Origin: a virus
Lineage: Duplodnaviria > Caudoviricetes
IMG/VR virus record: IMGVR_UViG_3300014208_000026
Span: 32,001 to 96,000 of that record
Length of the DNA stretch: 64,000 nt
Direction: 5' to 3' (one strand)
The translations under genes and the position numbers were made by a program. The notes under the pieces were generated by a model. It did no database searches. It had not been told where the DNA came from and saw nothing but the letters and a program-made list of their open reading frames with translations. Positions 55,940-64,000 of the stretch are shown here, one piece after another; the stretch's first letter is position 1, and every line of letters starts with the position of its first letter.

Positions 55940-58904
55940 CGCCCACAAGAGGGTCATAGGAGGGATACGTACAGCAGCTTTCTGCCACCTCGGCCCTCTC
56001 TATCATGGAACCAAGGATCCCGAAGGGCTCCTGGAAGCCCAGACCTTTGATTGGAGCCGGTTGCAGTCTCGGGATTCGGGTTTCTTCGGGAACGGCTTTT
56101 ACCTCGCAGACAGTCCGCAACATGCTCGATCCTATGGGGGGACGGTCTTGGAAGTGGCCCTGAAGCCCTCGGCCAAGATCCTGTGCGCCATGGAGCCTGG
56201 AGTCTTCTCTGGAATGACCCCCACGAAGTCTCCCTCTTACCAGGAGGAATTCGCTGTTTTCATGACCGGACGGATTGTGAAGCATCGGGGGGATATAGAA
56301 AAGGCCAAGAAAATCGTAGAGGGGGAGTACACCCCGGGAGGCACTTCTTTCGACTCCATTGGTTGGAAAAAAGATATCACAATGTGGGTACGGGACGAGA
56401 AGGTGGCCGATGCTATCAATTGGGGGTCTGAGACAATTGTCCTGAACCCCCAAGCTATCGCCAGCATCCGACGAATCCGGTACCGTAAGACTCAAGCAAG
56501 TGCGGCTGACGGCATCAAGACCGGCAAAGGCAAAGGGGTCGGTTTCTTCATCCCGCTCCCGTTAGATGAAGCCGCCAAGTTCCCCTCTCTCGGAGACCAG
56601 GATAAAAGCCCGAGCCACGTTACCTTTTTATACGTTGGTGACGTAACTCCCGAGGAGGAGCCAAAACTGCTGAGTGTCGCTCGCAACGTGTTCCGCTCTT
56701 TCGCCAGGGGTCCTGTGAGAGCCCATTCCCTGCCCGTGGAATACTTTGTCCATCCGGCCATGGGGCGTCGGGTAGCTGTCGTACCTTGGCAGTTCGACAA
56801 GGATCTGGCCGGACTCCGCTGGAAGCTGCGGGATGCTCTACAGGACGCGGGTTTCAAGGTAGAGGACAGTTTTCCTCTTGTATACCGTCCCCACACGACT
56901 CTCCGGTATTGTGAGAGCCTCCAGGAGGAGTACAAAGGCTCAGTGCCAGTTGCGGGCTGGTCTTTCGACGCGGTTGAGATTTGGGGCCTGCCATATTTGT
57001 ACCGGATTCCGTTTGGGGAAGGTTGTTCAGTGAGGGTTGCCGGAGCCCCCCTGTCCTTTGCTCCTGCGGAGGACAAGAGAGGCAAGCCCCTCTCCCCTGG
57101 GGACTATGTGCAGCTTCGAGGTCGGGACGGATGGGTGGCAATTAGCCCCAACGTCCAGGGGTTCTATTACCTCGACGAAGAAAATACGGGGATGGCACCT
57201 CAACTTGTTATCGTGACAACGGATTGGAAGGGGGCTGTTAAAACCTCTGAGGTTGTCAAGACGCAGACCGTCAGGATGTCCGCGTATAAAGATCCTCCCG
57301 AGGACGTGGCTCGGGTTCTGCAGACGCTTAGGGTAAAAGTCTCCCGTACTGCTCAGTGTGGGGGATTGGCTTCGAGAGTAGCCAGCCGATTCCTGGAGGC
57401 TTCCAAGAGTCTCCCCATGAAAGGGCGTCGTTACGGATTCTTCATCTACGGGGACAAGACCGGGGCCTGGGAGTTGGGAGATAGTGCTCGCTGGGGAGGG
57501 TTGGAAGACGGAGCGTGGCAGGCTATCCCGAGCTTCTCTTCGAAGAACGAGTGGCGCAACCTGTCTGTAGAGGGGGCTACTGAGCATCACCCTGGATTCT
57601 TGAAGGCTCTCAGGGAGATGGTTCGAGAGTATCCCGAAATGACAGATTGGTGGGTCCAGTTCGACGGGCCTTGGATTGAAGTACGGGACTTGGTAGGAAG
57701 CGGCTCCGTTTCTCCCAAGTTCAATTGGGAGTCCCTCAAGCTATACCACGGCACCAGCATGGCGGCTTGGGAGAAGATCCAAAAGCAAGGGCTCCTCCCT
57801 CGCAATCTGAGCGGGATGGGGCCTTCGTATGGGACGCTATCGCAGGCAGGGGAAGGGCATAAAGACGCTGTGTACCTCACGACCCAGATTGGCACTGCTA
57901 GAATGGCCGCCAGAGACGCGGCTCGCGTCACAAAGAGTAAGCCTATAGTTTTGCAGATAAGGGGGCTGGATGCGGAGTTCGTGGTTGCCGACGAGGATAG
58001 CCATTCGGCCAACCCTGAAGTGAGCCTCCAGACCTTGGGTTCTGTGGCTTACGTAGCCCCGATTCCTGCAAGTAGGGTGGAAATGTTCGAGTATTTAGTG
58101 GACAGCGGGTGGACTAAAACCGCTCGTTTCGATCCCGAACTGGAGGGGTTGGGCGGGTTGCTTCGGGGAGAACCGACCACTCTGTACCACGGGACCACAC
58201 GGCAGTTCAAGAAGTTCGACTTGTCCAAGTCCCGTACGGAGTTGGTGAATGATTTCTACGGGGCTGGCATTTTCCTGACTCCTTCTCAGAGTGTTGCTTG
58301 GGATTACGCCGAGGCCAATAGAAACATTGGATTACCGTCGTCGATTGTGCAGGAACTCAAGAGGAAGAATCCCGTTGCGGGGGATTTCTTGGAAGCTCTG
58401 GTCAAGCACGGGGATGCTGCTTGGGATATAAAGTTGCCTAGCGGGCGCACTTGGGCACAGTCCTTCGCCAGCGACGAGCTAGAGGCGGGGGTCGATCCGA
58501 ACAGCATCAGTGACATTGCGCAGTACGTCGAGGGCAGCAAGGTTCATCCGTTGGCCGACCAGACCGGTTTTGTTAATATCTTCAGTACCTCTACAGGAGC
58601 CCCTGAGTGGCTGTACGACCTGTTGGCAGAGGTGGGCCTGGACGACAAAAAGTACCGTCCCAAGGTCTACGCAGTATCTGTGAAGGTAGACAAGGTGTTG
58701 GTGACAGCCAAGGAGAGTGAGGCTAAGAAGGCCCACAGTCGGGGTTACGATGCGGTGATATTCCACGGGTCCAGGCTGGTGGGCGGAGTACCCGAGGTTG
58801 CAGTTTTCGACCCGAGCAAGGTTCGTATCCTGAATGTTCGTACGGGGTCCTTGGTTCAACGAGTTGCCTCCCGATACTGTGAAGGGGGTCTGAGTGGGAA
58901 GTAG
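55929..58904 (+). CDS. polyvalent protein: three ART-fold domains plus 2H phosphoesterase
   Basis: Three LYHGT motifs (GFYLA, VYLTT, GIFLT) and two HxT motifs (SHVTF, PHTTL). Confidence 0.8.
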   Translation: MQSSAHKRVIGGIRTAAFCHLGPLYHGTKDPEGLLEAQTFDWSRLQSRDSGFFGNGFYLADSPQHARSYGGTVLEVALKPSAKILCAMEPGVFSGMTPTKSPSYQEEFAVFMTGRIVKHRGDIEKAKKIVEGEYTPGGTSFDSIGWKKDITMWVRDEKVADAINWGSETIVLNPQAIASIRRIRYRKTQASAADGIKTGKGKGVGFFIPLPLDEAAKFPSLGDQDKSPSHVTFLYVGDVTPEEEPKLLSVARNVFRSFARGPVRAHSLPVEYFVHPAMGRRVAVVPWQFDKDLAGLRWKLRDALQDAGFKVEDSFPLVYRPHTTLRYCESLQEEYKGSVPVAGWSFDAVEIWGLPYLYRIPFGEGCSVRVAGAPLSFAPAEDKRGKPLSPGDYVQLRGRDGWVAISPNVQGFYYLDEENTGMAPQLVIVTTDWKGAVKTSEVVKTQTVRMSAYKDPPEDVARVLQTLRVKVSRTAQCGGLASRVASRFLEASKSLPMKGRRYGFFIYGDKTGAWELGDSARWGGLEDGAWQAIPSFSSKNEWRNLSVEGATEHHPGFLKALREMVREYPEMTDWWVQFDGPWIEVRDLVGSGSVSPKFNWESLKLYHGTSMAAWEKIQKQGLLPRNLSGMGPSYGTLSQAGEGHKDAVYLTTQIGTARMAARDAARVTKSKPIVLQIRGLDAEFVVADEDSHSANPEVSLQTLGSVAYVAPIPASRVEMFEYLVDSGWTKTARFDPELEGLGGLLRGEPTTLYHGTTRQFKKFDLSKSRTELVNDFYGAGIFLTPSQSVAWDYAEANRNIGLPSSIVQELKRKNPVAGDFLEALVKHGDAAWDIKLPSGRTWAQSFASDELEAGVDPNSISDIAQYVEGSKVHPLADQTGFVNIFSTSTGAPEWLYDLLAEVGLDDKKYRPKVYAVSVKVDKVLVTAKESEAKKAHSRGYDAVIFHGSRLVGGVPEVAVFDPSKVRILNVRTGSLVQRVASRYCEGGLSGK

Positions 58905-60030
58905 AGACCTACAGGCTTCGTTGGTCTTATACCACGGCACCTCTGGAGGTTTTGGGGATCTGGACCCGGACAAGAGCGGTCTAGGGACACATTTCGGTAG
59001 TTACCGTGCGGCCACCCGGCGTTTGCGGGGGCTGAAAAACGTGCAGGGGCCGCATCCGGTTGAGGTCCGAAGGTACAAGATCCTTTCTTCGAACCCCCTG
59101 CTTCTGGATGACGTCGGGGCTTGGGACAGTCTGCCGGATGTCGAGCACGCTCTCATCAAGGTTGGGGTCATGCCCTTGGAAGAGCTTCCCAATAGCCGTC
59201 AGTTGAATGGGTCTGCTGCATGGGAACACCTTCGGGATTTGATTGAATCCGCAGGTTACGATTCCGTGGTCTACGCCAATCGGCTTGAGGACCGTGGTTC
59301 TCTGTCCTACATTGTCTGGGACCGTTCTATGGTGCAGAGACTCCCTGACGCCAAGATTCCCAAGCACCTGAAGACCGCTTCTGGCACGGTCCCCATTCTC
59401 GTCCTCCCAGCCGAAACAGTGAAGTACCGGAAAAAGTTTCCCGGATTCAAAGACACTCTGATCGTGGGCAAGTTCCTAGCGTCGGTCTCCCTATATCGGA
59501 TTTTCGACTTCGATGAGTTCCTCGGTTTGATGTACCGCTTTAACTCCGATATCAAAGGTGGTACCTTTGCGATTCCTGCTGAGAGAACTTTCGGGGCGTC
59601 CTGGAGCGGTAGTTTGCAGGATGCTTTGGACTTCGGGACTGGTTGGAAATCTCGGGGTAGATTAAAGGGGCAACTCTACATTGCAGAGATTGACGGGAAT
59701 GGCAAGACTTTCAGCCATCTGGCTCCCAACATCGATCCTATTTTTGACGGGTTTGCTCTCGATAATGCTTTTCAATCTAACATGCACGTTGATAGCTGTC
59801 GTGGTGAGTTGGGTTGCTCTGTAGTCCACGTTCGTCCCTCCAAGGTGAAGACGTGGTATAGGGTGGACGAGAGCGGGCACCCTGAGAAAGTTTCTGTCCA
59901 GGAGTTGCAGGCGGAATTCAAGGAATGGGAAGAGAACCGGAAGAAGGAGTACATGACGGCCTCTGCGGACAAAACCGCAGCGACGCTCACGAAAGCTTGG
60001 ATCATGTCTGTCCGGCGAGGTTGGAAGTAG
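58894..60030 (+). CDS. polyvalent protein with two ART-fold domains
   Basis: LYHGT..GTHFG..GYDSVVY and LYR..ASWS motifs separated by KTAS. Confidence 0.7.
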   Translation: MGSRDLQASLVLYHGTSGGFGDLDPDKSGLGTHFGSYRAATRRLRGLKNVQGPHPVEVRRYKILSSNPLLLDDVGAWDSLPDVEHALIKVGVMPLEELPNSRQLNGSAAWEHLRDLIESAGYDSVVYANRLEDRGSLSYIVWDRSMVQRLPDAKIPKHLKTASGTVPILVLPAETVKYRKKFPGFKDTLIVGKFLASVSLYRIFDFDEFLGLMYRFNSDIKGGTFAIPAERTFGASWSGSLQDALDFGTGWKSRGRLKGQLYIAEIDGNGKTFSHLAPNIDPIFDGFALDNAFQSNMHVDSCRGELGCSVVHVRPSKVKTWYRVDESGHPEKVSVQELQAEFKEWEENRKKEYMTASADKTAATLTKAWIMSVRRGWK

Positions 60031-61323
60031 TTACGGGTAGCATAGACTTTTATCCAAGCTACACATTTCTTGGGTATCAGGGACTACATGCTCCTGACCG
60101 ATCTCCGCCCAATAAAATCCACGTCTATTGTCCAAAGATCGCCAGCCTTCCCCCAGAGGGGTTAGGTTCAGGCTAATATTCCGGGAGGCGTTCAAGTCAG
60201 CATTTGCGGCGAAGCCGCATTTCTTGCACTTGAACATCTCTCCTTTTCTATTAGCCTTCTGGACCCATCCACAACACGAACATCTCTGGCTCGTAAAAGC
60301 TGGGGGGACTTTAATGATCTGGACACCAGTGTCTTCACAAAGTCTACCCAGCTTACCAAAGATCTCCGTATATGTCCAACTCCTCATGGACTTGGACGTT
60401 CTCACGCCTAATCTAAGATTCTTGATCGCCTCGATCTTAAGTGTTTTTACTCCCCGTAGGTTTAGCTGGTTCAACGACCAGTTGATGTAGTTGGTCCTGT
60501 GGGCTTGAGCCCTCGCGAAAGCTTTAGACCCCTTCTTCTTATGGTTCATCTCAGCGATGATCTTGGGCAGGGTCCAACCATGCACGTCTTCCTGGGACTG
60601 AACCCCGTCGCTCGAAGAGAACACTTTCTTATAACCTATATCCACCCCAACTGTTGTTCCCTGAGATACGGGTTCGGGTTTGGGAATAGAAAATACACAC
60701 GTTACAGAGTTTGAGTTTAGTCTAAGCCCAGGTCTGATCTCACCTCTGGACTTCATCTCGTTAAAGTGCTTAGTTAGTTTGATCGGGAACACGATCTTTA
60801 GGGAGTGGTCCCAACCAGGAGGAGTACCTAAACAGGTTAGATTTACATAAGCATCGAACGAGGTCTCGGACTCCCAGTCGATCTTGACGAATCTTGAGTC
60901 CAGTTGGGGATTCATGTTCTTGAGATCCGGCTTGGACATTTTGGTCTTATCTATGACCTTCTTGAGCTTCTGGGCTTGTTTGGTCTTACCCTCAGCTAAA
61001 AGTTTAGCATAGACGAACTCACGCCTTTTCTGCTTTTCACGAGTTCCTCTCACGATCCCAGAAGCCTGTTTAGCTGCGGCTTGGACAGCACGAGCCGAGA
61101 GCCAAGTCTGGGTCGAGACTTGATCTGTAAAGTTTTTCGAAAACAACCTCTGGATCTCAGCGTCCTCTCCGAGAGTCCAGAGAGGGTCGACGAACAGAGC
61201 GGTTACTCGCCAGTACTCTTCAGTAAAGAGATCGATGAGATCTCGTTTTCCTGGGTTGGTGAATTTGAGGGACAGTTTAGAGGACCGGATCAGGGAGTAT
61301 TTGTCTTTCTTGGATCGAGCCAT
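60031..61323 (-). CDS. tnpB: TnpB RNA-guided nuclease (solo element)
   Basis: VGVDIG, IEAIKNL, TSQRCSCCG...CKKCG, NADLNAS. Confidence 0.9.
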   Translation of the reverse strand: MARSKKDKYSLIRSSKLSLKFTNPGKRDLIDLFTEEYWRVTALFVDPLWTLGEDAEIQRLFSKNFTDQVSTQTWLSARAVQAAAKQASGIVRGTREKQKRREFVYAKLLAEGKTKQAQKLKKVIDKTKMSKPDLKNMNPQLDSRFVKIDWESETSFDAYVNLTCLGTPPGWDHSLKIVFPIKLTKHFNEMKSRGEIRPGLRLNSNSVTCVFSIPKPEPVSQGTTVGVDIGYKKVFSSSDGVQSQEDVHGWTLPKIIAEMNHKKKGSKAFARAQAHRTNYINWSLNQLNLRGVKTLKIEAIKNLRLGVRTSKSMRSWTYTEIFGKLGRLCEDTGVQIIKVPPAFTSQRCSCCGWVQKANRKGEMFKCKKCGFAANADLNASRNISLNLTPLGEGWRSLDNRRGFYWAEIGQEHVVPDTQEMCSLDKSLCYP

Positions 61324-61360: not shown

Positions 61361-61404
61361 TTGACAAAAAATCCATCCCTGTCTATAGTACCCTATAGAC
61401 AGGG
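61361..61404. promoter_or_regulatory. sigma70-type promoter (+) overlapping a 12 bp palindrome at the left end of TnpB element 2
   Basis: TTGACA, 17 nt, TATAGT; CCCTGTCTATAG-TACC-CTATAGACAGGG at 61377-61404. Confidence 0.65.
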
Positions 61405-61535
61405 TATTGGAACACGATACTTTAGTAAACTCACGATACTCTGGTAAACCAGAGTAAACTGCCTACACTTCTTTCAAACCCGCTAAGTTCCCTATAGCCT
61501 CGCTATGGTTAGGAGCCTATCTAAGGGACTGCCTT

Positions 61536-61925
61536 ATGCCCGACCGGAATCTTACAACCCGAATTGCCCAAAGGCACTTGCAGGCTCGCAAGTTTGTCTT
61601 GACTCCGCAGGTAGTCGCCGAGTTCCGCAAAGAATTCCTGATGTTGATGAAGAACCTGAAGCGAGTTCAGGATTACGAAGGGGCGATGGCCCTGAAGGAG
61701 GCTCTCCGTACCTGGAACCAGGACATGGATTTCTTTTTCGAGCAAATCCGTGATTTCCTCGAAGATCTGGTTCGAACCGAGAAAGACTCCGGTACAGGTA
61801 AATGGGCGGAGCATTACCTCAAGGAGTTAGGTCCGAGTTTCGGGGCTTTTCTGCATTGGGTTCCACATCTTCCGGTGACTAGGGTGGGGACGGTAACTTT
61901 TGATTTTGATTTCGATTTTAGATAG
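61536..61925 (+). pseudogene. 5' piece of a tagged zincin peptidase gene interrupted by TnpB element 3
   Basis: Starts with RIAQRHL tag; rejoins 63144 in frame when 61876-63143 is removed. Confidence 0.7.
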
Positions 61926-63143
61926 GAAATTTCATATGATCTTGGCACACCGCATACAGCTTGACCCGACTTTCAAACAGGTCCGGTATTTTGTCCAAGC
62001 CAGCGGTACGCACAGATTCGTTTCTAACTGGGCTTTGGCTGAGTGGAATCGGCTTTACGAAGCCGGAGAGAAGCCAGACGGAATGAAGTTGAGGAAATCT
62101 TTCAACTCCCGTTACCCCAAGGAGTTCCCTTGGATCTCGGAACTCCACAGGGACTGTCATTCACAGCCTTTTAACGATCTCCAAGTGGCATTCTCTAGGT
62201 ATTTCAAAGGCGAGGCCAAGCATCCTGTATTCAAGAAAAAGGGAGAGCACGATTCTTTCTATGTAGCAAATGACATTATCTCTTTGGATGAGTCAAGAGT
62301 TCGAATTCCACGTTTGGGTTGGGTTCGGATGACGGAGCCCCTCCGGTTCGCGGGGAAAATTATGAGTGCCCGAGTCACGAGAACCGCTGACAAGTGGTTT
62401 ATTTCTGTCCAGGTGGACATAGGAGATCCCGCTCAAAGTGGTCAGTGGGAGCGAATTTCTGACGGGACAGTCGGGGTAGACCTGGGAATCAAGCATGCAG
62501 TGGTCACCTCCGACAATGAGGTATTCGACGGCCCTAAGCCTCTGAAGAAGAACTTGGAGAAGCTTAAACGTTTGCAGCGACAACACGCCCGTAAGCAGAA
62601 GGGCTCCAAGAACAGGCACAAACTCACGATGCGGCTGGCTCGGCTCCACGCCAAGATCGCGAACATCCGGAAGGACTTTCTACACAAAGTGACGACCAAG
62701 ATCTGTCGTGAGAACCAAACGATAGTTCTTGAGGATCTGAACGTAGCGGGGATGATCAAGAATCATAAGCTAGCTCGGGCGATCATGGATATTGGGTTTG
62801 GAGAGTTCAGGAGGCAGGTTGAGTACAAGTCCGGCCTCTACGGGAACACCCTAATTCTGGCGGACCGGTTCTATCCTTCTTCTAAGTTGTGTTCAAAGTG
62901 TGGACACAAAAAAGAGGATCTGACTCTAAAGGATCGGACGTATTGTTGTGAAGCTTGTGGTGCTGAGATCGACCGGGATCTCAATGCGGCTTTGAATTTG
63001 CGTAATCTAAGTACCCTCGGCTTGAGGGGAGCTTCCGGAGGCGATCTACCTCCGGTAAAAGCCTGTGGACCGAAAGAGCCTCGGAGCGTCGGGAAGAAGC
63101 AGGAACCGAAACGTGTGAAGGGATAAATCCATGCACAAGTCGG
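61876..63143 (+). mobile_element. solo TnpB element, IS607-like GG core
   Basis: CGG at both junctions; typical right end GCCTGTGGA...GAAGCAGGAA...hairpin...GTCGG. Confidence 0.8.
61936..63126 (+). CDS. tnpB: TnpB (IS605 OrfB type with N-terminal HTH)
   Basis: MILAHRIQLDP, VGVDLG, IVLEDL, SSKLCSKCG...CEACG, DRDLNAA. Confidence 0.92.
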   Translation: MILAHRIQLDPTFKQVRYFVQASGTHRFVSNWALAEWNRLYEAGEKPDGMKLRKSFNSRYPKEFPWISELHRDCHSQPFNDLQVAFSRYFKGEAKHPVFKKKGEHDSFYVANDIISLDESRVRIPRLGWVRMTEPLRFAGKIMSARVTRTADKWFISVQVDIGDPAQSGQWERISDGTVGVDLGIKHAVVTSDNEVFDGPKPLKKNLEKLKRLQRQHARKQKGSKNRHKLTMRLARLHAKIANIRKDFLHKVTTKICRENQTIVLEDLNVAGMIKNHKLARAIMDIGFGEFRRQVEYKSGLYGNTLILADRFYPSSKLCSKCGHKKEDLTLKDRTYCCEACGAEIDRDLNAALNLRNLSTLGLRGASGGDLPPVKACGPKEPRSVGKKQEPKRVKG

Positions 63144-64000
63144 ATGAGCAGTATCAGTACGCCGATTTTCTGAAGGAACTGCCAACCTGGGAGAACCGAA
63201 TCCGCGCCAAGTCCTCGACCGCTTGGAAGTATCTCGCCGAGTTGGCGGAGTGGGCTGTACGGGATGATTTCGGCGGAGGTGGCGGGAAGCCCGTAGTCCT
63301 ACGGAGGAGAGAGAAAGAGAACGTCCGGTTGGAGGGGTTTGCAACCCAACTCGTAGGATACGAGGACGATGAAGAATGGCACAGAGATAATCTTGCACGC
63401 CTGAAGGCGGGTCTTGCCCTGTACCGGAAACGGGCTCAGGCGGTCTATCCTTGGCTGCTGAAGTACCAACTCCCCCTGGTCGTGAACTTCGAAGAGTCTT
63501 CTCGGGAGGACTCCGCCGCTAGTTACGAACGCTCTTTCATTCGGATTGGGGTTTGGGCTGTCTCCGACCTCCCCATGGATTTTGTTCATGCCCTAGCTCA
63601 CGAGATGGGGCACCACATGTTCAAGACCCTGGTGACAGCCCAAGGTCGGGAAGCATGGACTGCTTTCATCAAGGGGTCTTACAAGGCGCTTGACCTCCGG
63701 GACGTGCTAGCAAAGTCACGTCCAGATGAAACTCTGTTCCGGTTGGACGATAGGATTCAGCGGGAGGATCCCATCCTCCACATTCAGCTACAGACCCTTA
63801 TCTATGACCCGCGGTACAAAGAGTACGATTTGATCAGCACTACGAGCATCAAGGAGTACCTGGACGCGGGGAAAGACCCGATCGTCCAGGTTCCGGCCCA
63901 TGCCATTTCGGGCTACGCAGGGAAGAACCAAGAGGAAGCGTTCTGCGAGGCGTTCGGGAACCTTGTGGGCTATGGTTCTCGTTCCGTACTGCTTGAGGTT
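63131..64000 (+). CDS. 3' piece of the zincin metallopeptidase gene (runs off window)
   Basis: Frame open from ATG 63131 to the window end; AHEMGH and YAGKNQEEAFCE. Confidence 0.8.
   Translation, partial: MHKSDEQYQYADFLKELPTWENRIRAKSSTAWKYLAELAEWAVRDDFGGGGGKPVVLRRREKENVRLEGFATQLVGYEDDEEWHRDNLARLKAGLALYRKRAQAVYPWLLKYQLPLVVNFEESSREDSAASYERSFIRIGVWAVSDLPMDFVHALAHEMGHHMFKTLVTAQGREAWTAFIKGSYKALDLRDVLAKSRPDETLFRLDDRIQREDPILHIQLQTLIYDPRYKEYDLISTTSIKEYLDAGKDPIVQVPAHAISGYAGKNQEEAFCEAFGNLVGYGSRSVLLEV

Follow-up and report, generated by a model that had tools for sequence, protein, structure and literature searches.

A linear virus record of 257,181 bp (IMG/VR IMGVR_UViG_3300014208_000026) carries four TnpB-like genes, and the copy with tnpB at 61936-63126 (+) lies within a giant phage gene. 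The window analyzed here is the 64,000-nucleotide stretch covering positions 32001-96000 of that record, and coordinates are window positions unless given as genome positions. The explanation that we prefer overall, with moderate confidence, is that an IS607-type element spanning 61827-63151 resides in the giant gene, that the gene pieces and tnpB are expressed by coupled translation, and that the guide of the element is read from 63152. An earlier interpretation of the same DNA (the sequence-only reading) had proposed that a TnpB element interrupts a peptidase gene at this site and supplies an in-frame restart, with element ends at 61876 and 63143. The features discussed are listed in Table 1.

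Table 1. Features of the split gene and of the TnpB element, in window positions
Feature	Position	Strand	Basis or remarks
Sigma-70-like promoter (TTGACA, 17 nt, TATAGT; 11/12)	61361-61389	+	Upstream of split gene; consensus match only
Host gene, N-terminal part	61536-61826	+	97 codons, ending ...KWAEHYLKE; homology to 41 proteins, hidden Markov model (HMM) alignment, phage-like codon usage
AGGAG, proposed transposon-adjacent motif	61822-61826	+	Flanks of relatives, published motif, motif-reading class of TnpB
Proposed left end, 109 nt	61827-61935	+	Codon-usage break; rival boundary 61875/61876
tnpB, 396 aa, intact	61936-63126	+	Pfam PF12323, PF01385, PF07282; D-E-D and CxxC...CxxC alignment
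Guide-RNA (omega/reRNA) scaffold region	62965-63151	+	5' limit inferred from published ISFba1 scaffold length
Putative restart cassette in hairpin: AAGGGA 63118-63123, tnpB stop TAA 63124-63126, ATG 63131-63133	63118-63133	+	Sequence, predicted fold
Proposed guide and target TATCAGTACGCCGATTTTCT	63152-63171	+	Starts after AGCAG tail; unique in 257-kb genome
Host gene, C-terminal part	63152-64000, on to genome position 101820	+	HEMGH motif; then HD domain, internal RVASRFL motif

The TnpB protein contains HTH_OrfB, OrfB_IS605 and Cas12f1-like TNB domains, and its RuvC D-E-D residues and both CxxC pairs of its zinc finger align with those of ISDra2 TnpB (8BF8) and ISFba1 TnpB (8IAZ). The nearest TnpB found was 66% identical and many relatives were 50-60% identical; relatives at 50-59% identity are encoded directly downstream of a serine recombinase with a MerR-type helix-turn-helix domain, which is the IS607 arrangement. 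Neither a serine (PF00239) nor a Y1 (PF01797) transposase was matched in the 257-kb record, and the left end of the element holds no tnpA remnant. Since tnpA is lacking here whereas relatives at 50-59% identity carry the serine recombinase, the element is, judged from its sequence, a non-autonomous IS607-type derivative made up of tnpB and a guide RNA.

The sequence-only reading was right that a TnpB element interrupts a gene: by comparison with homologues, the element lies in sense orientation in a real, otherwise continuous gene. In the homologues encoded on three viral contigs, a single open reading frame (ORF) covers both the N-terminal piece and the beginning of the large piece. The 129-residue upstream ORF, used as query in an exhaustive HMMER search, matched 41 proteins, and in most of them the N-terminal domain heads a protein of 400-2600 residues. 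The fused reading gave blastp matches covering about 400 residues with identity up to 47%; no host homologue above 49% identity was found, and the phage record collection yielded a single match at 34%. The host gene would comprise 97-113 codons in its N-terminal part and about 2,225 codons thereafter, about 2,300 in total. The N-terminal part holds an RIAQRHL motif, in a region where three helices are predicted in the homologues, and this motif remains on the small N-terminal piece after the split. The downstream ORF, taken from ATG 63131, is in frame with the HEXXH half of the gene, as had been noted before, and has 2229 codons, extending out of the window as far as genome position 101820.

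Whether the host gene encodes a peptidase was examined by motif, family and fold comparison. The sequence AHEMGH, of the HExxH type, was invariant in 24 homologues. The only Pfam match of the host protein was an HD domain at residues 1030-1116, and no peptidase family was matched. With the AlphaFold model of one homologue (predicted local distance difference test score, 86) as query, Foldseek returned weak matches (E 0.06-0.4), nearly all of them zinc metallopeptidases (M1, M9, M61). The peptidase label derives from the invariant HExxH and these weak fold matches, and a zincin-like peptidase module in the host protein is plausible. Relatives of the first module in other phages (P0136, P0164-P0170) are fused to topoisomerase IB, SprT-like, superoxide dismutase (SOD) and phosphoribosyltransferase (PRTase) modules. 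By these sequence comparisons the host protein is giant and modular, probably of a virion or 'polyvalent' type, and the gene is not a plain peptidase gene; of the earlier description the HExxH motif stands, but the gene has about 2,300 codons and no Pfam peptidase match. The score of a complex predicted between the N-terminal piece and the first C-terminal module (0.26, against a mark of 0.32) spoke neither for nor against binding.

Two further observations concern the architecture of the host protein. The fusions of the first module in other phages suggest that polyvalent giant proteins of this kind form a family. In plus-strand ORFs of genome positions 62-120 kb, 15 occurrences of [RK][VI]A[SGQA]R[YFWH]x were counted where shuffles predict 0.1; this motif heads the HMM consensus of the split-gene family, recurs in the giant ORF at residue 1265 and resembles a module-start signal or a processing or targeting signal.

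The right end of the element was analyzed by alignment of 22 relatives. In every one of them tnpB is followed by GCAGGAA, a short helix, a hairpin, the second half of the helix and a single-stranded tail of 7-8 nt ending in AGCAG; the AGCAG ends eight bases past the helix, and beyond it the flanks diverge. Helix and hairpin covary, with 85.5% of cells paired and 8 of 11 pairs changed on both sides, and the covariation score was reached by no shuffle. The window follows the same plan, with CCGA at 63106-63109, a hairpin at 63114-63137, UCGG at 63140-63143 and the tail AUGAGCAG at 63144-63151. A covariance model built without the window found its best match at 63087-63151, over the full length of the model and ending exactly at 63151; against this placement, the score of the match was weak (7 bits, E 0.11). 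Given the family-wide position of the AGCAG tail after the covarying helix, the right end lies very probably at 63151. Our best model of the guide has it starting with TATCAGTACGCC at 63152, in host sequence, and no near match to it adjacent to an AGGAG was present in the genome. The guide proposed previously, beginning ATGAGCAG, most likely belongs to the guide-RNA scaffold, as its final 8 nt. No Rfam family, RAGATH-18 included, was matched in the whole window at the gathering threshold or in 62700-63300 at E 10, nor in eight of the relatives.

The left end was considered in the light of the published behavior of IS607 elements. AGGAG is the adjacent motif of 18 of 22 IS607 TnpBs, with all bases required (Ren et al., PMC11061315), and the right end of an element carries a near-copy of its adjacent motif, with a single mismatch at position -3, so that the element is not cut (Zedaveinyte et al., bioRxiv 10.1101/2023.11.20.567912). 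The AGGAG proposed on the left and the AGCAG on the right of the present element show the same one-mismatch design and have the AG crossover dinucleotide in common. Among relatives that bear TnpA, the bases immediately left of the conserved left end were GGAG in 17, AGAG in 9 and GGAA in 1, whereas more distant relatives have a GGG left flank and right ends finishing in ACGG. An attempt to read the motif from the residues that contact it in ISFba1 was abandoned, as conservation was partial (N57, N112 and S144 are kept, two lysines are not), and the adjacent motif was therefore inferred from closer relatives. The motif-reading region of the present TnpB shares HRD[AC]H[AS]QPF and SFYVAN-D with the GGAG/AGGAG class and not with the GGG class.

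Codon usage was also informative. Phage-like usage breaks exactly at 61826/61827, and the 16 codons of 61827-61874 fall in the 2nd percentile of phage coding windows, with a likelihood ratio of 0.07 as against 18-37 for neighboring host windows. Removal of 61827-63151 restores the frame and joins ...KWAEHYLKE to YQYADFLKELPTW. Together with the right-end data, these results make 61827-63151 the probable extent of the element. In our best model the AGGAG at 61822-61826 is the real junction, an assignment that draws on codon usage and is contested by protein-level evidence.

Restoration of the frame here is no more than chance would give, since the abundance of xAG codons in the host ORF puts most junctions ending in AG in frame. 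Several observations count against this left junction. In all homologues the YL[KN] motif is followed by a helix (P.W.F..E[LV]), which is confidently modeled in the AlphaFold prediction of the homologue, and a gene rebuilt with ends at 61827/63151 would be without it; the distance between the two conserved motifs would then be 33 residues, against 58-111 in 28 homologues. The 16 codons after 61826 weakly resemble the helix, although 3-4% of random peptides score equally well, and DEQ also fits the family (5%). In addition, the closest phage-borne relatives have no clear canonical left junction. A deletion of host DNA beside the right end after insertion is possible. YQYADFLKEL was considered as the missing family helix and rejected, its score being no better than that of random tails. 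Three relatives were likewise rejected as a generalization of the junction (L013, L015, L110), as an RGAG junction gave an open ORF in them but moving the right end by 1-2 nt as a control did so equally often; the downstream ORF of L110 had no match in the phage collection.

Two other placements of the ends were weighed against 61827-63151. In the sequence-only reading the element was bounded by CGG at both junctions (61873-61875 and 63141-63143), with the guide ATGAGCAGTATCAG and an empty site reading ...VPHLPDEQYQY...; these ends would imply a GG crossover dinucleotide. The CGG triplets are present as described, and deletion of 61876-63143 (1268 nt, 2 mod 3) does join CCG G to AT GAG CAG TAT in frame. 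A GG core is the textbook IS607 case, the ACGG ends and GGG flanks of the more distant relatives would suit it, the fused protein scores slightly better on the family HMM (227.9 vs 222.0 bits), and its linker of 52 residues comes closer to the family range. On the other hand, with about 60 x 25 pairs of ends available, several in-frame 3-nt microhomologies are expected by chance, so the ends are not fixed by the repeat. The host would also have to supply AGCAG by chance at the tail position of the family (about 1 in 1000), the element would finish at its helix (63143), the codons of 61827-61874 would be host codons of non-phage usage, and the left flank TCCGG fits no family motif. The motif-reading region places this TnpB in the AGGAG class and not the GGG class, and the family uses (A)GGAG rather than CGG as core or adjacent motif. 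These ends, and with them the junction peptide, disagree with the family both in the conserved tail at the right end and in the motif of the left flank, and we consider them very unlikely. The 26-mer spanning this junction was absent from viral_contigs, a search that was not made for the 61827/63151 junction.

A mixed arrangement, in which the right end is 63151, the left junction near 61875 is non-canonical or decayed and the AGGAG is merely the codons AAG GAG, fares somewhat better and is still unlikely. Under it the left flank would end, for example, in CATCTTCCG, giving ...VPHLP-YQY... in frame; the 16 codons LGPS...HLP, which resemble the helix found in all homologues, would then belong to the host, and the absence of a canonical left flank in phage-borne relatives such as L109 would have a parallel. 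The left ends of relatives begin with bases similar to TGACTAGGGTGGGG at 61876, though no more so than chance would give. This arrangement is opposed by the 2nd-percentile codon usage of the same 16 codons, by a junction that lacks the AG core, and by an empty site that TnpB would not recognize.

Two side observations concern the ends. The relatives L010-L107 fall into two IS607-type end classes, one with GGAG/AGAG on the left and AGCAG on the right and the other with GGG on the left and ACGG on the right, and these classes track the TnpB motif, HRDAHAQPF in the former and TK[NC]APQ in the latter. A small hairpin, TCCGAGTTTCGGG, and a T-rich run after it open the proposed left end (61832-61844) and resemble a terminator by a loose consensus.

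With the element at 61827-63151, expression of the downstream half of the gene was considered. The host ORF reads 32 codons into the left end and stops at a TAG (61923-61925) 10 nt before the tnpB ATG. At the other end, the terminal hairpin has the tnpB stop TAA in its apical loop and, 4 nt further on, the ATG at 63131 in an internal loop, which agrees with the earlier remark that this ATG overlaps the predicted hairpin. A stop-to-start gap of 4 nt is a classic coupling distance. The window hairpin is about 7 nt longer than those of relatives, and the additional bases hold the stop, the Shine-Dalgarno (SD)-like site and the ATG. The native start at 61536 has the same AAGGGA with the same 7-nt spacer as ATG 63131; of 32 likely gene starts, 27 have an SD-like 4-mer before them, compared with 24% of ATGs overall, and an independent gene caller places the start of the large ORF at ATG 63131. 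These sequence features make plausible a restart at this ATG, the three ORFs of a single transcript being translated in a coupled manner. The in-frame restart put forward earlier thus gains an SD-like AAGGGA and a stop codon 4 nt upstream, with coupled ORFs plausible, but it would involve three ORFs and not two. We advance more tentatively, as a rather improbable elaboration, that the right end has been remodeled so that the guide-RNA hairpin doubles as a translational coupling cassette, the left end being kept open in the host frame, and that the element would be tolerated in this way without a ribozyme.

The restart could instead be a coincidence, the insertion being one that inactivates or truncates the gene (because it is recent or the gene dispensable) and leaves the large ORF untranslated from 63131. 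We give this a minority share of belief. Against a restart, the SD-like site binds weakly (-5.1 kcal/mol) and is in part sequestered by pairing within the hairpin; by chance, about 2-3% of right ends would have an in-frame ATG and an SD-like 4-mer in their last seven codons, and the present case was noticed post hoc; and the phage is identical in two other assemblies, which hence provide no usable polymorphism, and the insertion cannot be dated. A coincidence would, however, have to accommodate an ORF of 2229 codons that is open throughout with good phage codon usage, a restart site that copies the AAGGGA and 7-nt spacing of the native start, the 4-nt gap between TAA and ATG, and the codon usage of tnpB, which lies within the phage range and suggests residence over fresh insertion.

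The gene arrangement around the closest relatives was recorded as well. These relatives (L109:792-1949, L110:1501-2670, L024:3001-4176 and the P0002 context) lie co-oriented in phage-like gene arrays, and their start or stop codons overlap neighboring genes (SSB/primase-like, DnaB, RHH) or lie a few bases from them. In L109 the ATG of the next ORF falls inside the right-end tail GGATGACCAG, which is nearly identical to GGATGAGCAG of the window.

The mechanism that we propose starts from a single transcript, presumably initiated at the candidate promoter near 61361-61389, the only strong promoter-like site before tnpB. The N-terminal host ORF would be translated as 97 host codons and 32 left-end codons, ending 10 nt before tnpB, and tnpB would be translated next. 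Ribosomes stopping at TAA 63124 would have melted the terminal hairpin and could re-initiate at ATG 63131, yielding a product that begins with MHKSDEQ and continues through the remaining ~2,222 host codons. The transcript would also be the precursor of the guide RNA. An empty allele, in which AGGAG is followed by TATCAGTACGCC, would be cleaved by TnpB, and the occupied allele would serve as template for its repair. Such cutting of empty alleles in co-infecting phages, also expected in the sequence-only reading, would carry over to phage the published model of TnpB homing and retention. It is feasible only if the empty site reads AGGAG followed by TATCAG, since ends at 61876/63143 would put the self-type AGCAG before the target, which should then escape cleavage.

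The element shares with the IS607 TnpB systems of ISFba1, ISXfa1 and the Clostridium botulinum IStron the TnpB architecture and catalytic residues, a link of its relatives to a serine-recombinase TnpA, a putative AGGAG adjacent motif on the left, a guide predicted to come from the right flank, and a right-end mimic of the motif with one mismatch that keeps the crossover dinucleotide, as in TGGG/TCGG of the C. botulinum element. It differs from them in residing in a phage without tnpA, in its AG core where the textbook core is GG, in having no Rfam RAGATH-18 match, and in the enlarged terminal hairpin with its stop, SD-like site and ATG. IStrons are IS605 or IS607 elements fused to a group I intron. 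As in IStrons, a TnpB element lies in a gene in sense orientation and one RNA would have conflicting roles, host expression and guide RNA. Here, however, the element has no ribozyme and a left end of only about 109 nt, Rfam matched no group I intron, even at E 10 on 62700-63300, and rescue would be translational, giving two polypeptides, rather than by splicing.

A gene in pieces is a well-known outcome for homing endonuclease genes. Phage genes are split by free-standing homing endonuclease genes in Aeh1 nrdA/mobE, T4 gene 39/60 mobA and phage 25 gene 43 (PMC2988022). The present case resembles these in the presence of a selfish nuclease gene in a phage ORF, in two separately translated pieces (here predicted) and in an RNA hairpin over the ribosome-binding site; it differs in that the nuclease is transposon-derived and predicted to be RNA-guided. 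The ORFs, SD-like sites and coupling distances that separate translation of the pieces would need are present. Like the polyvalent and giant modular proteins of huge phages, the host protein has an invariant HExxH module and a first module whose homologues are joined to enzymatic modules of several kinds (topoisomerase IB, SprT-like, SOD, PRTase, HD); unlike them, its first module is outside any curated family and its peptidase activity is putative. In the literature no description was found of a TnpB element that splits a phage gene with translational restart.

Upstream of the split gene, a perfect 12-bp palindrome (61377-61388/61393-61404) overlaps the promoter-like TTGACA-17 nt-TATAGT and is followed in the leader by two 18-nt direct repeats (61413-61430 and 61432-61449), so that 61361-61449 looks like an operator or regulatory leader. 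A second TnpB-like ORF lies nearby at 60031-61323 (-); it encodes 430 aa, matches only the TNB domain in Pfam and is a 'transposase' in PHROG. It is convergent with a 378-aa ORF (58894-60030), the stop codons abutting, and the guide-RNA region of the TnpB-like ORF would extend in antisense over the end of the 378-aa ORF.

For TnpB elements in general, these results suggest that ends are best set by family-wide conservation of the ends and by the motif class of the nuclease rather than by in-frame microhomology, the two approaches leading here to different guides and different predicted target sites. If the restart works, it would be a protein-level route by which a TnpB element can reside harmlessly in a coding region, standing beside the RNA-level solution of the IStrons and the genes-in-pieces of homing endonucleases. 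Maturation of the guide RNA and translation of the 6.7-kb downstream ORF would then compete on one RNA, a conflict between translation and guide processing analogous to that between splicing and guide formation in IStrons.

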